NCBI GenBank assembly: GCA_028716245.1
Contig: JAQUQW010000001.1
Location: forward strand, 549,925 to 613,924
Length of the DNA stretch: 64,000 bases
Direction: 5' to 3'
Source: Candidatus Omnitrophota bacterium
GTDB lineage: Bacteria > Omnitrophota > Gorgyraeia > Gygaellales > Profunditerraquicolaceae
The position numbers and the translations under genes were made by a program. Below the pieces are notes generated by a model, which was not told the origin of the DNA, ran no database searches, and was given only the letters and a program-made list of their open reading frames with translations. Positions 2,281 through 56,842 of the stretch are shown one piece after another (positions within the stretch are counted from its first letter, which is position 1; every line of letters begins with the position of its first letter).

Positions 2281-2342
2281 ATAGCAAATTCCTTGCTCGT
2301 TTCACTCGCAAGGATTTCGTTAGATCAAAACTTAAGGTGCTC

Positions 2343-2400
2343 AAATTCGGCCAACAAACTTATGTTCGCTGTCGCTCCATAAGTTGGGGCCTCATTTAAG
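2343..2400 (-). repeat. partial, inverted copy of the 84-nt hairpin element (first hairpin only), directly after the tRNA-Pro 3-prime end
   Basis: The minus strand reads ttaaatgagg...aacttatggagcgacagcgaacataagtt...cgaattt. It shares ttaaatgag, the aactta/taagtt stem with a compensated C-to-T/G-to-A pair, and cgaattt with the full copies. The atcccgcc/ggcgggat hairpin is absent. Confidence 0.5.
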
Positions 2401-2474
2401 TCGGGGCGACAGGACTTGAACCTGTGACCTCAGCGTCCCGAACGCTGCGCTCTACCAAGCTGAGCCACGCCCCG
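2401..2474 (-). tRNA. tRNA-Pro (anticodon CGG)
   Basis: Reverse complement CGGGGCGTGGCTCAGCTTGGTAGAGCGCAGCGTTCGGGACGCTGAGGTCACAGGTTCAAGTCCTGTCGCCCCGA folds into a 74-nt cloverleaf: 7-bp acceptor stem, D-arm GCTC/GAGC, anticodon stem CAGCG/CGCTG with loop TTCGGGA, T-arm ACAGG/CCTGT. CCA is not encoded. Confidence 0.9.
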
Positions 2475-4200: not shown

Positions 4201-5011
4201 TTTTTAGCCCGCGAAGTTTTTCTACCAGTTCAAACGGTATTTTAACCATACCCAGCTTTATATCCGGTTTTGCGCTGCCGTGAAAATCACTGCCTCCGCT
4301 AACCGCAAGATTAAGTTTCTTAGCTAATTCCAAATAAAAATTAACCAGCGATTGGGAATGTTCGGGGTAATAAATCTCTATTCCCTGTAAGCCATATCCT
4401 GCGAATTCAGTAATCAAAGCGTCATTACGCAGTAAATAGGGATGCGCCAAAACAGCCACCCCGCCGGCATCTTTAATCATTTTTATCGCCTCCTGCACGG
4501 AAAGATAAAAACCCAAAACATAGGCCGGGGACCTGTCCCCTATATATTTACGAAATGCCTCGGGGATATTGGCGACATGGCCCTCTTTGACTAATGCCCG
4601 GGCAATATGCATCCGGCCCACCGTAGATTCTCCGGAAATGCCAAAAACAGTATTGGCATCAAGATTAACTCCCAATCCTGCTAAATTTTTTACGATTTTA
4701 TACACCCGCTCAACACGGTTTTCCCGTAATGAAATTAATTTTCTAAGCAACGCCTTATTTCGATAATCCAGGAAATACCCGAGTATATGTATCTCCTGGC
4801 CTTCATGTCGGGCGGTCAATTCAATCCCGGGAATAATTTCCAGATCTTTACCTTCTGCTTCAGCTATTGAGGCAGAAATCGCATCCACGGTATCGTGATC
4901 AACTATGGCAATTGCCGAAAGCTTACGTTTGATACTTTCCTTGACTAATTGCGCCGGCCCAAATGTACCGTCGCTAGCCAAAGTATGCACGTGCAAATCA
5001 GCGTATTTCAT
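4193..5011 (-). CDS. PHP-domain phosphoesterase (TrpH/YciV-like)
   Basis: N-terminal DLHVHTLASDG metal-binding PHP signature, 272 aa. Overlaps the ribD start by 8 nt and the nusB stop by 4 nt. Confidence 0.7.
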   Translation of the reverse strand: MKYADLHVHTLASDGTFGPAQLVKESIKRKLSAIAIVDHDTVDAISASIAEAEGKDLEIIPGIELTARHEGQEIHILGYFLDYRNKALLRKLISLRENRVERVYKIVKNLAGLGVNLDANTVFGISGESTVGRMHIARALVKEGHVANIPEAFRKYIGDRSPAYVLGFYLSVQEAIKMIKDAGGVAVLAHPYLLRNDALITEFAGYGLQGIEIYYPEHSQSLVNFYLELAKKLNLAVSGGSDFHGSAKPDIKLGMVKIPFELVEKLRGLKND

Positions 5012-5424
5012 TTTTCTTTCTCAATTTTTACTTGGTCCAAAATGGCGTTGACAAATTTTCCGGACTCAAGGCCGGAATATTTCTTGGCCAACTCCACAGC
5101 TTCGTTGATGGCAACCTTAGGCGGAATATCCTGCCGAAACAAGAGTTCAAAACAACCCAGGCGCATAATATTGCGGTCCACAAATGCCATACGTTCAAGC
5201 TGCCAGTTGGCCGCGTATTTGCTGATCTTTTTATCAATCTCCTGCATATGGTTGACTACCCCGCCAAGCAGTTCCGCGGAAAAATCCTTAAGTTCACCGG
5301 GAATATCATCCCGCTCATTACTCAGCCAGAAATTTTCCAAAGTTTCCTGCCAATTACCGCGGGTAATCTCCACCTGGTAAAGCATTTGCAACACATATTC
5401 ACGCGCTTTAGTCCGTTTTCTCAT
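5008..5424 (-). CDS. nusB: transcription antitermination factor NusB
   Basis: MRKRTKAREYVLQMLYQ... is a typical NusB N-terminus. I chose the ATG at 5424; the track ORF start at 5454 lies inside the repeat element. There is no SD before the ATG. Confidence 0.85.
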   Translation of the reverse strand: MRKRTKAREYVLQMLYQVEITRGNWQETLENFWLSNERDDIPGELKDFSAELLGGVVNHMQEIDKKISKYAANWQLERMAFVDRNIMRLGCFELLFRQDIPPKVAINEAVELAKKYSGLESGKFVNAILDQVKIEKEK

Positions 5425-5516
5425 TAAATGAGCGCTTAAGTTATGGAGATGCATGTTGAATGTATCGACATAACTTAATGCGCGAATTTATCCCGCCGAA
5501 TAATTTGAGGCGGGAT
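5424..5516 (-). repeat. two-hairpin intergenic element, copy 1 (variant with a compensated stem and a larger loop)
   Basis: ttaaatgagcgcttaagttatg...cataacttaatgcgcgaatttatcccgccgaataatttgaggcgggat. It lies between the ribH stop and the nusB ATG, and the nusB ATG directly abuts it. Confidence 0.8.
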
Positions 5517-5523
5517 CAAGTTA

Positions 5524-5991
5524 TTATTTTAGCTGTCCTGATAAATTGATCATCTCAATAGCCGAAAGAGCCGCGTCCCTGCCCTTGTTGCCATCTTTAG
5601 AACCTGCGCGTTCTACCGCCTGTTCGATGCTATCGGCGGTAATTATACCAAAGATAACCGGTAAGTTGCAATCCAAAGATACCTTGGCAACGCCTTTGGC
5701 GACTTCCGAAGCGATATAATCAAAATGCGGAGTTGCCCCGCGGATCACCGTGCCCAAACAAATCAAAGCATCAAATGATTTTGTTTTAGCCATTTTCTGG
5801 GCAACCAGCGGAACCTCAAATGCTCCCGGAACCCAGGCTACCGTAATATCTTTTTCTTCGGCGCCATGCCTGATCAAAGTATCAACGCAGCCGCTGACCA
5901 GCTCTTTGGTCATGAAATCATTAAACCGGGAAGCCACCAAACCAAAACTCTGCCCCTTTGCCAACAGCTTACCTTCAATTACCTTTACCAT
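5524..5991 (-). CDS. ribH: 6,7-dimethyl-8-ribityllumazine synthase
   Basis: 155 aa in the lumazine synthase family (GAFEVP...[14 protein letters not shown]). Confidence 0.9.
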
Positions 5992-6004
5992 GTTTCCTCC
6001 CTTG

Positions 6005-7213
6005 TTAAAGTTCCAACTGATGCCCTAGTTTCTCTTTTTTTGTTTTTAAATATTTATAATTTTCCGCGTTGGGCGCGATCTCTAAAGGCAGGCGCTCGGA
6101 AACCTCCAGGCCATAACCTTCCAGACCCACAATCTTGCGCGGATTATTCGTTAACAACCTGATCTTTTTAACCCCTAAATCTACCAGGATCTGGGCTCCG
6201 ATCCCGTAATCGCGCAGGTCAGCCTTATGCCCTAATGCTTCATTGGCTTGGACCGTATCCATTCCCTTATCCTGAAGATTGTACGCGCGTATCTTCTCAA
6301 CCAATCCAATCCCCCTGCCCTCCTGGTTCATATAAAGGATTATCCCTTTTTTCTCGCGGGCAATAATCTGCATGGCTTTCTCTAACTGCCGGCCGCAGTC
6401 ACAGCGTAATGAACCAAAAACATCTCCGGTTAAACACTCTGAATGCACGCGCACCAATATCGATTCATCAAACCCGCTCCCCATGCACAAAGCAATATGG
6501 GTTTGGCCATTGGTTTTATCGCGATAAATAGTTAACTTAAATTCTCCGAATTTTGTGGGCAATTTAGTCTGGACAACCGCTTCCACTAATTTTTCTCTCC
6601 TGCGGCGATATTCAATCAGGCTGGCAATAGTGCAGATCTTTAAACTATGCTTTTTGGCAAACTCCCGAAGCTGCGGCAGGCGGGCCATGGTCCCGTCATC
6701 ATTCATAATCTCACAAATCACTCCGGCAGGATAAAGCCCGGCCAGGCGCATTAAATCCAGGCTGGCTTCAGTATGCCCTGCCCTGACTAAAACCCCGCCC
6801 AGGTGGGAACGTAAAGGGAAAATATGCCCCGGACGAATTAGATCCTCCGGCTTAGCTTGAGGATTAATTAAAACTTCAATTGTCTTAGCCCGGTCATGAG
6901 CCGAAATTCCCGTAGTTATCCCGTGAGCCGCGTCCACTGAAATCATCCAGGCAGTTTTAAAAGGATCTTCTTTGGAAGCTGCCAGGGTATTCTTAAGCAT
7001 CGGGTCAAGCTCCAGGAAGCGCAGCCTTTCCTCCTCCATTGGAACACAAATAAGCCCCCGGCCGAATTTAGCCATAAAGTTTATATCTTCAGGCTTGACG
7101 CTTGAGGCAGCCATCACTAAATCACCCTCATTTTCGCGGTCCTCATCATCAATGACGACCACCATCTTACCGGCTTTTAAATCTTCGATAATTTCTGGAA
7201 TGGTGTTAAACAT
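6005..7213 (-). CDS. ribBA: bifunctional 3,4-dihydroxy-2-butanone-4-phosphate synthase / GTP cyclohydrolase II
   Basis: 402 aa: an N-terminal DHBP synthase domain and a C-terminal GTP cyclohydrolase II domain with the CxCxRQ zinc motif (CDCGRQ). Confidence 0.9.
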
Positions 7214-7256: not shown

Positions 7257-7271
7257 CGTATTGATTTTAAT

Positions 7272-7490
7272 CTTCTCTCATCTGGACTTTCCCATATAGA
7301 AGCAACACCCCGCGCTAAATGGAATCACGCGGGTGTCCATCTGCATGGACCATCGGCCCTGGAATCTCACCAGATCTGCGGGCGCCTGCATCTTTGCGCC
7401 TGCTCGCGGGCTTTTCACTTGGCGCTATTAGGAAGCGCCGGTGCGCGCTTGTTGCGCGACCGCCGGTAAGGATTTACACCTTGCCCTAAA
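7272..7490 (-). promoter_or_regulatory. FMN riboswitch (RFN element) aptamer
   Basis: Minus strand: GGGCAAGGTGTAAATCCTTACCGGCGGT...CCAAGTGAAAAGCCCGCGAGC...GCAGATCTGGTGAGATTCCAGGGCCGATGGT...AGTCCAGATGAGAGAAG. These match the conserved RFN blocks. The element is GC-rich relative to its surroundings and lies upstream of ribBA. Confidence 0.9.
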
Positions 7491-7505
7491 GATTAATTGT
7501 CTATT

Positions 7506-9604: not shown

Positions 9605-10848
9605 AGTTTTAATTCCCCCGCTAAGTCATACTCTAAAGTATCGGTAATTTTGGCCTTCACAAATTCACCTTCTAAAAGCCGCTTCTTACTATTCACATAA
9701 ACCATTCCGTCTACCTCCGGGGCATCTGCCTGGCTGCGGCCGATATATACGCCATCCTGTTTTTCTTCAACAAGGACTGAGATAGTTTTGCCTAAAAACC
9801 TGGAATTTAATTCCGCGGCTATTTTCTGCTGCGCCGACATAATCGCCGCAAACCTCTCCTGCTTAAGCTTGCGGGGAATTTGCCCTTTAAAGCTGTAGGC
9901 CGCAGTTCCTTCTTCCCGGGAATAAATAAAAACCCCTAACCTATCAAATTTTACCTCTTTAACGAATTCAAGCAACTCGTTAAATTCCTTCTTTGTTTCC
10001 GAAGGAAAACCTGCGATCAGCGAAGTGCGCAAACAAACACCGGGAATTTCCTTCCTGATCTTGCCGATTAAAGATACGATTTCCTGCTTGGTAATTTTAC
10101 GATTCATCAGCTTCAGGATACGGTCATTGATATGCTGTATGGGCAAATCAATATATTTACATACCCGTTTACAAGAAGCGATTAACTCCAGCAGTTCATC
10201 GGTAATACGTTCGGGATTTAAATACAAAAGCCGAATCCAGCCGATATCAGGCGAATTCTTGATTATTTTTTTTAAAAGCCCGGCTAACTGGCTTGCCCCG
10301 CCAAGATCTACGCCAAACCCGGTTATATCCTGGCCGATGATATTAAGCTCTGAAATTTTCTCCCGGTTAAAACGCCTGACTTTTTGAATTATTACTTCTT
10401 CATCCAGGCTTACCAGTTTACCTTTAATCTTAGGGATTACACAATAGCTGCACTTATTCAGACAGCCTTCACATATTTTTAGATAAGCGTAGTGCTTAGG
10501 AGTTAGAGCAAACCTTAATTGTTGCTGGTTTGGCCCCGGCGTTCCCACAAAAGCATCAACTTCGGGCAGCTGGTTTTTTAAATCCTTATAACGCTGCGCC
10601 AGGCATCCGTGAACAATTATTTTTTTAAGCTTTCCTTGCTTTTTTAGCTCGATCAGCTCAAGGATAGCATCAACTGACTCACGTTTTGCTTCTTCAATAA
10701 AAGCACAGGTATTTACTAAAACTACCTGTGCGTCTTTTAAGTCATCAACAATAGAATAGCCCTTAGAACTAAGCCGTCCAAGTATGTTTTCAGCGTCTAC
10801 CAGATTCCTGGGGCAGCCTAGACTTAATACCCCTAATTTCTGCTTCAT
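9601..10848 (-). CDS. rimO: radical-SAM methylthiotransferase, ribosomal protein S12 methylthiotransferase RimO-like
   Basis: LGCPRNLVDAE N-terminus, LTPKHYAYLKICEGCLNKCSYC radical-SAM motif and a C-terminal TRAM domain. Confidence 0.75.
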   Translation of the reverse strand: MKQKLGVLSLGCPRNLVDAENILGRLSSKGYSIVDDLKDAQVVLVNTCAFIEEAKRESVDAILELIELKKQGKLKKIIVHGCLAQRYKDLKNQLPEVDAFVGTPGPNQQQLRFALTPKHYAYLKICEGCLNKCSYCVIPKIKGKLVSLDEEVIIQKVRRFNREKISELNIIGQDITGFGVDLGGASQLAGLLKKIIKNSPDIGWIRLLYLNPERITDELLELIASCKRVCKYIDLPIQHINDRILKLMNRKITKQEIVSLIGKIRKEIPGVCLRTSLIAGFPSETKKEFNELLEFVKEVKFDRLGVFIYSREEGTAAYSFKGQIPRKLKQERFAAIMSAQQKIAAELNSRFLGKTISVLVEEKQDGVYIGRSQADAPEVDGMVYVNSKKRLLEGEFVKAKITDTLEYDLAGELKL

Positions 10849-11630
10849 CTGGAAATTTTTAAGCCTTCTTTATTGATCAGGATATTTTTCAAAGGCTTTC
10901 CGCGCCTGCCCAGATTAGGAAAACGCTGGTCATTAACCTGCAACTCTACTGCTCCGGCATCCCCTAACGACAATTCAATTTTTTCTTTAGCGCGCCAGGT
11001 TTCGCTCCTGCCACGCGTAAGTACTCCGTGGAAAATAGTTTTACCGTCGGCTTTAGCGGATACCCAGGATTTATTGCGGGCAAATATCCCCACCGTAAGC
11101 CCCTGAACCAGATCTTTGGAAACCTTGTTCTGCAGGGTGGCGGATTTTGGCACAGAAGTAACCATAAGAACTTTGGCTCTTTCTAAAGGGCTCTTTTTGC
11201 GCGAAAAAATAAACTTGATCAAATTAACTCCTAAAAATATAAAAATCAACGCCAGTACCGCCAATACAGCTATTTTCTTAAGGTTAACCGAAAGGTTCAT
11301 GGTATTTAATTTCATTGAAGCATCTTTAATAAAAGAAGTCGTATTTTCAATACGCCCTCCTAGCGGCCTGCCGACAGTGGCATTCAATACCGGCTTAGTC
11401 GGCGGCTGGCTGCTTGAACCGATATATTCTTTGGGATCAAGACCGAGCGAACCGCAATAAATTTTAATAAAACCTTTTAAATAAATCGGGCTTAAATTCG
11501 AGATACTGTCGCCTTCGATTGCGCGCAAGACGTTAAGATGGATTTTAGTCTTCTTCTGTATGTCTTCAAGGGATAAGCCTTTTTCCTGACGGATCTTTTT
11601 TAGCCGGGCTCCGGCTGTTTCGATATTCAT
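10845..11630 (-). CDS. rodZ: RodZ-like cytoskeleton protein (N-terminal XRE HTH, TM segment, C-terminal DUF4115-like)
   Basis: ARLKKIRQEKGLSLEDIQKKTKI HTH, then a hydrophobic segment, 261 aa. Confidence 0.6.
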   Translation of the reverse strand: MNIETAGARLKKIRQEKGLSLEDIQKKTKIHLNVLRAIEGDSISNLSPIYLKGFIKIYCGSLGLDPKEYIGSSSQPPTKPVLNATVGRPLGGRIENTTSFIKDASMKLNTMNLSVNLKKIAVLAVLALIFIFLGVNLIKFIFSRKKSPLERAKVLMVTSVPKSATLQNKVSKDLVQGLTVGIFARNKSWVSAKADGKTIFHGVLTRGRSETWRAKEKIELSLGDAGAVELQVNDQRFPNLGRRGKPLKNILINKEGLKISR

Positions 11631-11662
11631 GGTTTTTCTACCTCCTTGGCCACAAGGCCATA

Positions 11663-11735
11663 CCCGCGTAACTCCTTATAAACGCGGGGTATTGCCCACA
11701 AGGGCACACCCGCGCAATTCCTTATTCGCGCGGGG
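11663..11735 (-). repeat. two GC-stem hairpins whose loops contain TAAGGAG/TAAGGAA, in the ftsK-rodZ intergenic region
   Basis: cccgcg/cgcggg (11663-11688) and cccgcgc/gcgcggg (11709-11735). The second hairpin straddles the ftsK stop codon. Confidence 0.5.
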
Positions 11736-16039: not shown

Positions 16040-16309
16040 TTACTTTCTAAGCTTAAGTTTTCCCAGGATCTCTTCGTACTTCTTCATATCCTTGTCCTTG
16101 AGGTACTTGAGGAGTCTGCGGCGCCTGCTTACCAATAGAAGAAGGCCGCGGCGAGAATGGAGATCATTCTTATGTGTTTTAAAGTGCTCCCCTAAATCAT
16201 TGATTCTCTCGGTTAAGATAGCTATCTGGACTTCGGCAGAGCCGGTGTCCCTGGAATGCACCTTAAAGTCATTGATCAATTTTTCTTTTTGTTCCTTTAC
16301 CAAAACCAA
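16040..16309 (-). CDS. rpsO: 30S ribosomal protein S15
   Basis: ...[35 protein letters not shown]... I inferred a TTG start preceded by GGAGG; the track ORF start is further upstream. Confidence 0.85.
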
Positions 16310-16340
16310 ATTTCTACCTCCTTGTGTACGGACACACACC

Positions 16341-16361
16341 GGCGCAATTCCAATTAGCGCC
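16341..16361 (-). promoter_or_regulatory. rpsO 5-prime-UTR hairpin (GGCGC UAAUUGGAAUU GCGCC), downstream of a TTGACT-17-TATAAT promoter at 16381-16409
   Basis: Minus-strand promoter: TTGACT (revcomp of 16404-16409), 17-nt spacer, TATAAT (revcomp of 16381-16386). The hairpin sits in the roughly 65-nt leader. Confidence 0.55.
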
Positions 16362-26168: not shown

Positions 26169-26275
26169 AGCGGGTGACGATGGCTGGATTCGAGGACGCT
26201 TCAGGCGGCCGAGAAACAGGCATCGGCAGGACCCGCGTAAACCGAGATTGCTTCGTCCGCCTTCGGCGGACTCGC
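26169..26275 (+). ncRNA. GC-rich structured element A (AGCGGGTGAC...GGCAGGACCCGCGTAA) plus a UUCG-tetraloop hairpin, candidate ncRNA or leader upstream of rpmB
   Basis: About 62% GC against an AT-rich background. Closing helix GCGGGU/ACCCGC, inner helix CGATG/CATCG, then GTCCGCCTTCGGCGGAC. Confidence 0.45.
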
Positions 26276-26304
26276 AATGACACGGAATTCGTATATATTC
26301 TAGC

Positions 26305-30359: not shown

Positions 30360-30512
30360 CTACTTGGCTTTTCCTAAAATCTTATACATACCGGTCCCGC
30401 ATTCAGGGCACTTGCCTTTCATCGCGGCGCGGCCGTTTTTCATGGTGACCTTCTGTTCATCCTTCATCGCTTTCTTGCCTTTGCATTTTACGCAATATCC
30501 TGTTTCTGCCAT
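30360..30512 (-). CDS. small zinc-ribbon protein (DUF5679-like), 50 aa
   Basis: MAETGYCVKCKGKKAMKDEQKVTMKNGRAAMKGKCPECGTGMYKILGKAK has two CxxC pairs. GGAGG lies 6 nt before the ATG. It falls below the ORF-track size cut-off. Confidence 0.65.
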   Translation of the reverse strand: MAETGYCVKCKGKKAMKDEQKVTMKNGRAAMKGKCPECGTGMYKILGKAK

Positions 30513-30524
30513 TTGTTTCCTCCT

Positions 30525-30608
30525 TTAAATGAGCACTTAACTTACGAACACGATAGTGTGAGTAAGTTAATGTGCGAATTTATCCCGCCGAATAATTTGA
30601 GGCGGGAG
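30525..30608 (-). repeat. two-hairpin intergenic element, copy 2
   Basis: ttaaatgagcacttaacttacgaacacgatagtgtgagtaagttaatgtgcgaatttatcccgccgaataatttgaggcgggag. It starts 12 nt before the Zn-ribbon ATG. Confidence 0.85.
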
Positions 30609-30666
30609 AATGTCTTATCGTTTTCAATACCCCTTGATTCTAACACAGGTTAATTTTGATGTCAAA

Positions 30667-40953: not shown

Positions 40954-41140
40954 ATTTTTTCATAAACTTATCCACCCGGCCGGCGGAATCCACCAGCTTT
41001 TGTTTTCCGGTAAAGAACGGATGGCACTTTGAGCAAATCTCAACGCGGATACTGGGTTTAGTCGAGCGGGTATGCACCGTCTCACCGCAGGCGCAGACAA
41101 TCGTGCTCTCTTTGTAATTGGGGTGAATTTTTTCTTTCAT
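40940..41140 (-). CDS. rpmE: 50S ribosomal protein L31 (zinc-binding C4 form)
   Basis: MKEKIHPNY...CACGETVHT...[13 protein letters not shown]. Confidence 0.9.
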
Positions 41141-41152
41141 TTCTTTTCTCCT

Positions 41153-41236
41153 TTAAATGAGCGCTTAACTTACGAATACGACAGTGTGAGTAAGTTAATA
41201 CGCGAATTTATCCCGCCGAATAATTTGAGGCGGGAT
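41153..41236 (-). repeat. two-hairpin intergenic element, copy 3
   Basis: It fills the gap from the rho stop codon (41237) to 12 nt before the rpmE ATG. Confidence 0.85.
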
Positions 41237-42496
41237 CTATTTCTGGTTCATGCTGTTTAAAAACTCTTCATTATTCTTTGTCTTTCCTAACTTTTCAATC
41301 AATAACTCCATCGCCTCCACATTATTTAACTCATTTAAAACTTTCCGCAAGATCCAGGTTTTCGACAATACATCCGGTTTGACCAGAAGCTCTTCATGGC
41401 GGGTGTTGGAACGCTTGATGTCAATGGCCGGATAAATCCTGCGCTGGAATAAATTACGGTCCAGCTGGGTTTCCATATTGCCGGTGCCCTTAAACTCTTC
41501 AAAAATAACTTCATCCATCCGGCTTCCGGTATCAACCAGGGCTGTGGCGATAATCGTAAGACTGCCGCCTTCATCTACCGCCCGGGCCGCTCCGAAGAAT
41601 CTTTTTGGTTTCTGCAGGGCGTTGGAATCAATACCGCCGGAAAGGACCTTGCCGCTGTGCGGGACCACCGAGTTATAGGCGCGCGCCAGGCGGGTTATGC
41701 TGTCTAAAAGAATTACTACATCGCGTTTATGTTCAACTAAACGTTTGGCCTTCTCCAAAACAATTTCGGCTACCTGCACGTGGCGCTCCGGCGGCTCATC
41801 AAAAGTGGAGGAAATTACCTCGCCTTTAACATTACGCTGCATATCCGTAACTTCTTCCGGACGCTCATCAATAAGCAAAACGATCAAAATTACGTCAGGA
41901 TTATTGGTGGTGATAGCATTGGCGATCTTCTGCAGCAAAACAGTTTTGCCGCTATAAGGCTGGGCAACGATTAAACCGCGCTGGCCCCGGCCAATCGGAG
42001 TAAGCAGGCTCATAATCCGCATAGATAATTCATCCGGCTTAGTTTCCATGTTAAACGGGGCGCGGGGATAAACGGGGGTGAGGTTATCAAAAAGAACTTT
42101 TTCTTTTACTTCTTCCGGATTTTCAAAATTCACCGCTTCCACCTTAAGCAGGGCAAAATATTTTTCCCCTTCTTTAGGCGGGCGGATCTGGCCGCTTACC
42201 GTATCTCCGGTGCGCAGCTCAAACTTCCTAATTTGCGACGGAGAAATATAAATATCATCCGGACAAGGCAGATAATTGTAATTGGGGCTTCTTAAGAAAC
42301 CAAAGCCCTCGGAAAGGATTTCTAATACACCCTCCCCGAACATCAACCCTTCTTTCTCAGCCTGAGCCTGAAGTATTTTAAAAATCAGGTCCTGTTTCTT
42401 CAAGCCGCTGGTGCCGTTGGCATTTAATTCTTTAGCTAATTTATTCAACTCGCTAATTTTCATTTCTTTGAGATTCTTTATATCTAACTTTTCCAC
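41237..42496 (-). CDS. rho: transcription termination factor Rho
   Basis: 419 aa with an N-terminal RNA-binding domain, a Walker A-containing RecA-like ATPase domain and a Q-loop. Confidence 0.95.
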
Positions 42497-53430: not shown

Positions 53431-53786
53431 TAACTTGTTGCTTCTTCCTTACTTTCTATTTTAGTAGCGTGCTTGCCGACCTTTTCCCTTAGGTAGTAAA
53501 GCTTGGCTTTTTTAACTTTACCGGAACGGATCAGCTCAATACGCTCGATAACCGGAGAATAAAGCGGAAATACGCGTTCAATCCCCTCGCCGAAGGAAAC
53601 TTTTCTCACCGTGAAGTTAAGTTTGGCTCCGGAGCCGCTCTTGGCGATCACCACGCCCTCAAAAGGATGCAGGCGGAACTTATCCGGACCTTCCGGGATC
53701 CTGGTCAGCACCTTTACCGTATCTCCGACATTAATGGCAGGCATCTGCTTCTTGGCAAATCCCGCCTCAATTGATTTGATGTCCAT
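53430..53786 (-). CDS. rplS: 50S ribosomal protein L19
   Basis: MDIKSIEAGFAKKQMPAINVGDTVKV... The true start is the ATG at 53786, preceded by AGGAGG. The track ORF start at 53846 reads through the repeat element. Confidence 0.9.
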   Translation of the reverse strand: MDIKSIEAGFAKKQMPAINVGDTVKVLTRIPEGPDKFRLHPFEGVVIAKSGSGAKLNFTVRKVSFGEGIERVFPLYSPVIERIELIRSGKVKKAKLYYLREKVGKHATKIESKEEATS

Positions 53787-53800
53787 TCTTGTTGCCTCCT

Positions 53801-53884
53801 TTAAATGAGCGCTTAACTTACGAACACGATAGTGCGAGTAAGTCAATGCGCGAATTTATCCCGCCGAATAATTTGAGGCGGGAT
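53801..53884 (-). repeat. two-hairpin intergenic element, copy 4
   Basis: ttaaatgagcgcttaacttacgaacacgatagtgcgagtaagtcaatgcgcgaatttatcccgccgaataatttgaggcgggat. It sits between the trmD stop (53892) and the rplS SD. Confidence 0.85.
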
Positions 53885-53891
53885 CTTACTC

Positions 53892-55678
<1,787 letters not shown>

Positions 55679-56760: not shown

Positions 56761-56842
56761 AATTTAAATAGGGACAGCGACCATTTTTTAGATAAGATGC
56801 TGATTGATTAAAAAATAGTCGCTGTCCCTAATTTCTAATTTT

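Follow-up and report, generated by a model that had tools for sequence, protein, structure and literature searches.

A 64,000-nt stretch of a Candidatus Omnitrophota genome (assembly GCA_028716245.1, contig JAQUQW010000001.1, positions 549,925 to 613,924; hereafter the window, numbered from its first letter) carries five copies of a small two-hairpin element, one of which lies between trmD and rplS at 53801-53884. It is well supported that these copies belong to a new modular family of interspersed repeats, which is co-transcribed with its neighbors and docked on gene starts. The family is apparently undescribed and so far known only from Candidatus Omnitrophota. As to its function, our preferred but tentative reading is that the module acts in mRNA as a punctuation or insulator signal.

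Copies, anatomy and distribution of the module

The copies in the window and their parts are listed below. Flanking genes of copies 1-4 were assigned with NCBIfam and Pfam, copy 4 was defined by sequence, alignment and fold, and L numbers are labels of contigs or loci outside the window.

53801-53884, minus strand: copy 4, between trmD and rplS
53858-53884, minus strand: hairpin 1 of copy 4, AUCCCGCC-UCAAAUUAUUC-GGCGGGAU
53852-53857, minus strand: spacer of copy 4, AAAUUC
53809-53851, minus strand: hairpin 2 of copy 4
53801-53808, minus strand: tail of copy 4, UCAUUUAA
53784-53800, minus strand: start region of rplS, adjoining the tail of copy 4 (AGGAGG at 53795-53800, an 8-nt spacer, ATG at 53784-53786)
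41153-41236, minus strand: copy 3, between rho and rpmE, beginning one base past the rho stop codon (AGGAG at 41148-41152 joined to the tail; rpmE ATG at 41140)
30525-30608, minus strand: copy 2, between a CNNM gene and DUF5679-rsfS-argS (AGGAGG at 30519-30524 joined to the tail; ATG at 30512)
5424-5516, minus strand: copy 1, between ribH and nusB, with a longer hairpin 2 that carries the compensatory changes UUAAGUUAUG/CAUAACUUAA
2290-2399, plus strand: copy 5, of the L130 subtype, inverted relative to the other four (covariance model, 28 bits, E 0.005)
2290-2316, plus strand: hairpin 1 of copy 5, UCCUUGC...GCAAGGA, followed by a 26-nt insert homologous to the insert of L130
2343-2349, plus strand: AAAUUCG of copy 5 (AAATTCG in DNA)
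2349-2391, plus strand: hairpin 2 of copy 5, followed by CTCATTTAA
2391-2399, plus strand: tail of copy 5, CUCAUUUAA

The initial annotation of this window had described copies 1-4 as near-identical minus-strand elements with two hairpins. Repeat finding and alignment recovered all four at these coordinates, and each is predicted to fold into two hairpins, with z-scores from -3.8 to -5.2. A 32-nt core, CCCGCC-N11-GGCGGGATAAATTCG, is exact in all four and had 0.00 occurrences in 100 dinucleotide shuffles. What had been taken for a partial copy at 2343-2400 proved to be a full copy of another subtype, copy 5, on the plus strand and inverted. Its tail adjoins the 3' end of a tRNA-Pro gene (2400-2474, minus strand), and its hairpin 1 lies 9 nt from the ATG of an acylphosphatase gene (2280, minus strand). 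The density in the window is five copies per 64 kb.

The unit is ~85-130 nt long and consists, in this order, of hairpin 1, a spacer (A/U)AAUUC, hairpin 2 and a tail UCAUU(U)AA. Over 22 aligned copies, two parts are constant, namely the spacer, along with the base that opens hairpin 2, and the tail, (C/U)UCAUU(U)AA; the distance from spacer to tail varies from 17 to ~60 nt. The usual hairpin 1 is (A/C/U)UCCCGCC-UCAAAUUAUUC-GGCGGGAU; with its 11-nt loop, it is identical in 18 copies from many genomes, and AAAUU is present twice, in this loop and in the spacer. In L126 and L130, hairpin 1 reads AUUCCGCC-UCACUUAUUC-GGCGGAAU, a version with a C-G to U-A double change, and in L072 (acpP), L086 (tRNA-Lys), L132 and copy 5 an unrelated hairpin takes its place while the spacer and tail stay. 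L130 and copy 5 also have an extra hairpin or insert ahead of the spacer. Hairpin 2 is of at least three types, namely long (the window), longer and branched (L001, L132), and short and GC-rich (L002, L003, L086, L090, L072), and UC/UC 2x2 internal loops flank its base and its inner hairpin. The strict form of hairpin 1 is paired with three hairpin-2 types, a single contig can carry differing types of both hairpins, and hairpins of the form YCCGCC-loop-GGCGGR recur as hairpin 1, as the short hairpin 2 and as the inner hairpin. The element is a composite of exchangeable modules, as BOX repeats are, and copies inside one genome are near-identical.

Spacer and tail may pair in a basal helix (UAAAU/AUUUA); one change in it is compensated (UUAAU/AUUAA in L086), and changes in L132, L090 and L003 are uncompensated. 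Two other structures were considered and rejected. A pseudoknot of the hairpin-1 loop with the tail would have at most 4 bp, and by eye the loop change of L126 is uncompensated in the tail. An upstream open reading frame (ORF) in hairpin 1 would lack a conserved start codon, as UCCCGCC is preceded by a variable base. A form without hairpin 2, AAATTCATTTAAAGGAG, was absent from the fetched loci, and the collection scans were blind to that form since both patterns required G after AAATTC. In L138, a hairpin-1-like sequence with spacer, AUCCUGC-UUAAGAAC-GCAGGAU-UAAUUCG (5994-6027, minus strand; covariance model R2, 34 bits, E 2e-4), lies in reverse just upstream of the ribosome-binding site of a plus-strand gene; the remainder of this match overlaps the end of queH and is doubtful.

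Twenty-four distinct copies were collected, comprising the five of the window, copy 5 included, and 19 on other contigs of the phylum Omnitrophota; the partial reverse-oriented match in L138 was left out of this count. A scan of species-representative genomes with the strict hairpin-1 pattern found it once in each of four metagenome-assembled genomes, three labeled Omnitrophota and one Planctomycetales. A metagenome scan yielded at least 11 more copies (10 distinct) amid many chance matches, its pattern being too permissive, and the sample of copies is incomplete and skewed to the strict form of hairpin 1. A covariance-model search with a check of covariation had been suggested along with the initial annotation. 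Models R1 and R2, built from the copies, picked up further and more divergent copies, and the covariation exceeded all 500 shuffles.

Against 670 kb of unrelated metagenomic loci, no match of these models had an E value below 0.7. At gathering thresholds, Rfam 15 had no match on the element in the window or in L001-L004, and at E up to 10 its best scores on copy 4 were 11-15 bits against thresholds of 39-64. The earlier impression that the element matches no known ribosomal-protein leader or riboswitch thus agrees with Rfam. A BLAST search of 50,697 phage records gave no match, two pattern scans of IMG/VR gave chance matches only, and literature searches found no published description of the element.

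Structural constraint, gain and loss, and the junction with genes

The initial annotation had argued for selection on RNA structure, and covariation in both hairpins supports a structure under selection. In a MAFFT alignment of 17 copies, 10 pairs are changed on both sides against 3.7 expected, and none of 500 shuffles reached 10. In a model-fitted alignment of 22 copies, 96% of cells pair and both sides are changed in 19 of 24 pairs (0 of 500 shuffles), whereas slid controls pair at 30-40%. The latter alignment favors structure by construction; the MAFFT alignment is independent and points in the same direction. The orthologous copies between trmD and rplS illustrate the pattern, with C-G changed to U-A in hairpin 1 and GCGC/GCGC changed to ACAC/GUGU in hairpin 2. 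At fourfold sites of rplS, the identity of the window to L126, L130 and L132 is 42-52%, and by hand count the element of L126 differs from copy 4 at ~14 of 90 positions. The spacer and tail are unchanged in L126 and L130, and L132 has one change in the spacer. Judging from these alignments, both hairpins appear to be kept by compensatory substitution and the AU-rich spacer and tail to be kept in sequence.

The element is gained or lost as a discrete unit. Contig L134 (GCA_028715785.1) is 90.3% identical to the window over an 18.5-kb alignment and has neither copy 2 nor copy 3. Apart from these two elements, which appear as indels of 81 nt (41156-41236) and 76 nt (30544-30619), the alignment has no internal indel of 6 nt or more, and the flanks of the elements are 87-96% identical. 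Occupancy at three orthologous sites is as follows.

CNNM to DUF5679: filled in the window, L018/L140 and L055/L068; empty in L134, L135 and L136
rho to rpmE: filled in the window; empty in L134, L136 and L140; a different hairpin repeat in L135
trmD to rplS: filled in the window, L126, L130 and L132; empty in L128, L137 and L138

The empty DUF5679 leaders have ...GCATAAAAAGGAGG in common and are homologous 5' untranslated regions (UTRs). Because the promoters of L055 (filled) and L136 (empty) are nearly identical, repeated gains at the same spot are favored. Multiple copies combined with discrete presence and absence at orthologous sites are what defines small interspersed repeats in general. 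The ends of the element are not complementary, and the only inverted repeats found are internal hairpin arms; terminal inverted repeats are lacking, and no flanking direct repeats that would mark a target-site duplication were seen. A MITE (miniature inverted-repeat transposable element), which would have both, was rejected on these grounds. Between filled and empty sites, 3-15 nt are replaced instead of a plain insertion. The initial annotation had regarded copies scattered in random orientation and context, like those of MITE or REP sequences, as evidence against its proposal. Clean presence and absence, patchy occupancy, mixed modules and one inverted copy are indeed observed, but the orientation and context of the copies are far from random.

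In nearly every copy, the tail runs into the 5' edge of a strong native AGGAG(G), into the AUG itself or into the end of a tRNA. Measured from tail to start codon, the offset is 10-14 nt, or -1, in 21 of 21 copies that precede coding genes, and the L086 variant lies 0-1 nt from the 5' end of tRNA-Lys. The 5' junction is variable, with distances of 0 to ~93 nt to the upstream gene. The 3' part of the ribosome-binding site and the spacing sequence that follows it are locus-specific and common to filled and empty alleles, which indicates that the site is native and that the element ends at ...UUUAA. The element had been said to abut start codons. This holds for copies 2-4, in which the tail ends 12-14 nt before the ATG and is joined to AGGAG(G), whereas copy 1 overlaps the nusB ATG at 5424, where its tail UCAUUUA continues into the ATG without a Shine-Dalgarno sequence; a junction of the latter kind is also found at fabF in L072. 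Copies 1-4 do share one orientation, as had been observed, yet this is weak evidence within the window because nearly all genes lie on the minus strand (61 of 76 crude ORFs) and the GC skew is uniform, and copy 5 is inverted. Over the family, 23 of the 24 full copies are sense-oriented.

The genes downstream of the element are listed here.

rplS: four genomes
rpsP: three genomes
DUF5679 zinc-ribbon protein gene: three genomes
rpmE and nusB: the window
groEL: L003
acpP and fabF: L072
Glu/Leu/Phe/Val-type dehydrogenase gene: L002
PTS EIIA-2 protein gene (PTS, phosphotransferase system): L086
AsnC-type regulator gene: L090
CBM48-domain protein gene: L026 and L084
2Fe-2S thioredoxin-like ferredoxin gene (weak match): L001

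The same element therefore precedes a tRNA and no fewer than 13 different genes, and these have no common function. The notion of a leader dedicated to translation genes arose from a view confined to this one window and does not stand, since groEL, acpP, fabF, the dehydrogenase, PTS EIIA-2, AsnC-type and CBM48 genes and the tRNA are preceded by it as well. In L086 (1218-2202, minus strand), a cluster of tRNA-Lys, tRNA-Leu and tRNA-Gly lies between two copies of differing subtype; one stands at the 5' end of tRNA-Lys, and the other begins 28 nt past tRNA-Gly and precedes the PTS EIIA-2 gene.

Three further observations concern the sequence at the junction. The tail and ribosome-binding site together, CTCATTTAAAGGAG, form a 12-of-14 palindrome with the center TTTAAA (53796-53809, 41148-41161, 30520-30533). 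An in-frame ATG in the hairpin-2 loop of copy 1 lengthens the nusB ORF by 10 codons (MHLHNLSAHL; 5424-5454, minus strand). The NusB family profile begins right past the ATG at 5424, and the longer nusB call is probably an annotation artifact made by the element. Antisense ORFs of 46-62 codons cross three elements on the plus strand (30513-30653, 41072-41260, 53789-53935); none has a conserved start, and the substitutions track stem pairing and not codons, which makes these ORFs look spurious.

From its position, the element appears to be transcribed within a 5' UTR or an intercistronic RNA. Most copies begin 0-18 nt past the upstream stop codon, or overlap it (L132), and these distances leave no space for a promoter. 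Copy 2 differs. It had been thought, like the others, to fill its intergenic gap, but the gap is 154 nt long and includes a promoter.

30637-30665, minus strand: sigma-70-type promoter ~29 nt ahead of hairpin 1 in copy 2 (TTGACA-17-TAGAAT, plus an upstream TG)

This promoter is the best sigma-70-type match of the region and is kept in six genomes with or without the element, which indicates that the element belongs to that 5' UTR. Elsewhere in the window, a flavin mononucleotide (FMN) riboswitch (7266-7497, minus strand; 77.8 bits) upstream of ribBA (6005-7213) has its own TTGACA/TAAAAT promoter and a canonical U-tract terminator, so ordinary promoters and terminators are used in this genome.

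Candidate functions of the module

The preferred reading, in which the element is a co-transcribed interspersed repeat that acts as punctuation or an insulator in mRNA, would work as follows. An endoribonuclease (RNase E/G-, Y- or III-like) would cut the conserved single-stranded spacer, the tail or both. The upstream message would then end in a 3' hairpin cap and be shielded from 3' exonucleases such as polynucleotide phosphorylase (PNPase), and the downstream gene or tRNA would keep a short, open and strongly ribosome-binding leader. Expression of the downstream gene would thus be uncoupled from, and raised over, that of its neighbor. Cleavage, stabilization and the effect on expression are all predictions from sequence. 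The anatomy is compatible with a signal for RNase III or RNase E in its long interrupted helix, its conserved UC/UC internal loops and its conserved AU-rich single strands, and pnp is encoded in the window. The occupied sites (between trmD and rplS, groES and groEL, acpP and the gene upstream of it, acpP and fabF, and a coding gene and a tRNA) are classic places of differential expression. Compensated hairpins, invariant AU-rich single strands, an exact junction and such positions form a pattern that fits punctuation or insulation, and an operon punctuation or processing site, one of the functions proposed at the outset, is the best functional guess. In predicted folds, the ribosome-binding site is unpaired in seven of eight filled sites (0.63-0.96), and minimum-free-energy folds leave it open. 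A riboswitch or an RNA thermometer was rejected because no predicted pairing sequesters the Shine-Dalgarno sequence or the start codon.

Several observations weigh against this reading. The stems have 12 G.U pairs and 8 A.C mismatches, which is no clear excess, so that the folded strand cannot be assigned and the hairpins could be kept at the level of DNA rather than RNA; part of the covariation may also be diversification of a mobile family and not selection at each site. Copy 2 already lies in a primary 5' UTR with its own promoter and therefore has no upstream cistron from which to be separated. Orthologous ribosome-binding sites without the element are about as accessible as those with it (mean unpaired probability of GGAG 0.57 in empty and ~0.70 in filled sites; eight versus eight sites, not significant). 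Close relatives carry the same genes without the element, one copy and the partial match in L138 are oppositely oriented, and the near-invariant 11-nt loop of hairpin 1 is unexplained by a mere structural cap.

The main rival, which we regard as possible but doubtful, is a purely selfish repeat of the REP or MITE type, which uses its hairpins, spacer and tail to get itself copied (a transposase or recombinase might, for instance, recognize them in single-stranded DNA). The bias in position and orientation would then reflect a preference for tRNA ends and the 5' edge of AGGAG as targets, combined with the purging of damaging insertions in a compact genome. Such a repeat would account for the elements being the sole longer internal indels against L134 within well-conserved flanks, for the patchy occupancy at all three orthologous sites, where the homologous UTR of the empty DUF5679 sites argues for repeated gains, and for the near-identity of copies within one genome. 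The mixing of hairpin types on one contig, the inverted copy 5, the ratio of G.U to A.C and the recurrence of the YCCGCC-loop-GGCGGR hairpin in three places are likewise in its favor, and the pneumococcal repeats BOX, RUP and SPRITE have been deemed parasitic on like grounds (PMC3049150). Known parasitic repeats, however, pile up downstream of genes or between convergent genes (PMC3049150), whereas the full copies of this element, with one exception, read in the sense direction and join the ribosome-binding site or gene start exactly. Moreover, the element is without terminal inverted repeats and target-site duplications, replaces a few nucleotides at filled sites instead of simply inserting, and has no transposase near any copy in the gene tables of the fetched loci. 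The same sites before highly expressed genes are occupied repeatedly, which is consistent with selection.

Three other explanations are less likely than a selfish repeat. It is improbable that the element is a shared cis-regulatory leader, in which a trans-acting factor (an RNA-binding protein or small RNA) reads the hairpin-1 loop, AAAUU or both and so governs one post-transcriptional regulon. The identity of hairpin 1 with its loop in 18 copies while fourfold coding sites are near saturation, the presence of AAAUU in both loop and spacer, and a fixed geometry by the ribosome-binding site that would allow a bound factor to control initiation are all in keeping with such a leader. These points must be set against the replacement of hairpin 1 by unrelated hairpins in four copies, the lack of a common function in the gene set, the missing element at the same genes in close relatives, complements of the loop elsewhere in the window that are not beyond chance, and the lack of predicted sequestering of the ribosome-binding site. 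We give still less credence to a signal at the level of transcription, whether a terminator or attenuator or a processive antitermination signal (a put-like two-hairpin RNA or boxA). Two adjacent stable hairpins would form in the nascent RNA, the sites include those between rho and rpmE and upstream of nusB, and the short GC-rich hairpin 2 of L003 followed by UCAUUUU looks like a weak terminator; the tail GCUCAUUUAAAGG may also resemble GCUCUUUAACAA, the boxA sequence to which NusB-NusE binds. A terminator scan nevertheless finds nothing at the element, where hairpin 1 with its 11-nt loop is followed by AAAUUCG and hairpin 2 by UCAUUUAAAGG (copy 4) and neither by a U-tract, and the terminator-plus-leader module proposed earlier fails on this point. 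The same genome has canonical terminators, such as that after the FMN riboswitch, and termination before groEL, rplS, acpP or a promoterless tRNA would be harmful. A boxA overlapping the ribosome-binding site would block translation, and no rRNA operon is present in the window or any locus. Least probable of all, and very much so, is a site at the level of DNA, that is, a promoter or protein operator built on the palindromes ATCCCGCC-N11-GGCGGGAT and CTCATTTAAAGGAG. Both palindromes are near-perfect, and the element precedes highly expressed genes and a tRNA that has no obvious promoter of its own. A promoter scan finds none in the element, however, and the canonical TTGACA-17-TATAAT promoters of the window lie at other places, for instance ahead of copy 2. 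A spacer-tail distance of 17 to ~60 nt and a hairpin 1 that can be displaced by inserts make a fixed -35/-10 geometry impossible, and changes in both palindromes are compensatory and not sequence-preserving.

A bolder version of the punctuation reading seems rather unlikely to us. The element would be a mobile or copy-pasted cassette of RNA structure, without terminal inverted repeats or target duplications, that homes with a sense bias to tRNA ends and to the exact 5' boundary of Shine-Dalgarno sequences. Omnitrophota would thereby have portable operon punctuation or expression boosting across the phylum, as a cellular counterpart of the phage T7 intercistronic RNase III signals, spread by some enzyme.

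Relation to known elements and significance for Omnitrophota

Early RNase III sites of phage T7 and the Bacillus subtilis cggR-gapA region are intercistronic RNA processing signals. The 5' UTR of chloroplast psbA is processed just upstream of the Shine-Dalgarno sequence (PMC2133069). All three have a hairpin with internal loops, placed in a leader or between cistrons, as in the mechanism proposed here, and the analogy is purely functional; they are single-locus or phage-specific signals, whereas the element is a multi-copy family with gain and loss. REP/BIME sequences occur in many copies without terminal inverted repeats or target duplications, act as 3' hairpin stabilizers of upstream mRNA, and are GC-rich extragenic palindromes like hairpin 1 and the short hairpin 2. 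REPs carry a conserved GTAG head, lie usually at gene 3' ends in either orientation, are often paired, and are associated with RAYT transposases. No GTAG or other conserved motif was seen 5' of hairpin 1 in the aligned copies, and no Y1 transposase was found in the Pfam gene tables of the fetched loci. The conserved AU-rich spacer and tail and the docking on ribosome-binding sites are without a REP counterpart.

ERIC is a single imperfect palindrome of ~127 bp, and Correia elements of Neisseria, which can create promoters, carry terminal inverted repeats and TA target duplications. Neither is tied to a Shine-Dalgarno sequence or similar in sequence to the element. According to PMC3049150, ERIC can create an orientation-dependent RNase E site, and RNase III cleaves Correia elements, which change how strongly the neighboring gene is expressed. 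ERIC/IRU and Correia elements are hairpin repeats inside transcription units that act on RNA (PMC3049150), which is the mode proposed here for the element, its cleavage being a prediction.

BOX of Streptococcus pneumoniae, together with RUP and SPRITE, comprises small modular repeats that are predicted to form stable stem-loops when transcribed and are co-transcribed with their neighbors; the presence and absence of BOX differ among related genomes, and it is suspected to alter the expression of adjacent genes (PMC3049150). The element has exchangeable modules, predicted transcribed stem-loops and presence/absence variation in common with it. However, BOX is bounded by boxA and boxC, which resemble terminal inverted repeats that the element lacks. 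Furthermore, BOX copies are found on both strands, approximately in line with coding bias, with an excess downstream of genes and in the gaps of convergent gene pairs (PMC3049150), unlike the sense-oriented copies here, with their 3' ends on the ribosome-binding site or gene start. The L19, L31 and S16 leaders of Rfam occupy the same positions, upstream of rplS, rpmE and rpsP, but none matches at E = 10, and the element is one and the same before unrelated genes and a tRNA and is missing before these ribosomal-protein genes in close relatives. An autoregulatory ribosomal-protein leader was rejected, the element being absent before rplS in L128, L137 and L138 and before rpmE in L134, L136 and L140.

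Other repeats and hairpins were seen alongside the family. A second, shorter 5' UTR module (11635-11675 and 16311-16351, minus sense) consists of GGA(A/G)UU(G/A)CGC(C/G)GGU(G/A)U, a small hairpin and then AAGGAGGUAGAAA; it lies upstream of a RodZ-like gene (10845-11630) and rpsO (S15, 16040-16339), has a related half-copy at ~11680-11715, and has no match in Rfam. This genome may make general use of portable leaders with a strong ribosome-binding site at their end. A separate repeat family is composed of GTCATTGCGAG, a YCCGCC-loop-GGCGGR hairpin and CGAAGCAATC (window 26245-26283, reverse; L126 ~4767-4805; L135 ~9948-9992). The nested-hairpin repeat of L135, ...CTGAG-[GC-rich hairpins]-CTCAGAATGAC, occurs in the gaps between rho and rpmE and between trpD and trpC (5880-5985 and 11020-11125), the former being the site of copy 3 in the window. 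A long, near-perfect, AT-centered hairpin, GGGACAGCGACTATTTTTT...AAAAAATGGTCGCTGTCCC, lies at 56761-56842 of the window and at 7215-7275 of L138, where it is kept at the orthologous position upstream of the queuosine-synthesis gene; rplS of L138 is 80% identical to that of the window at the nucleotide level.

Omnitrophota are uncultured, mostly ultra-small bacteria with compact genomes, and the control of gene expression in them is nearly unexplored. A structured element with several copies per 64 kb would count among the main features of their post-transcriptional organization. Its position is set by translation starts and not by gene ends, which is unusual among bacterial interspersed repeats. 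For annotation, the element matters because it gives rise to spurious ORFs and, as at nusB, to misleading upstream start codons. The filled and empty alleles of genomes that are 90% identical provide a natural on/off comparison. Finally, the family bears on how 5' UTR modules spread, and the element could serve as a portable insulator of ribosome-binding sites.

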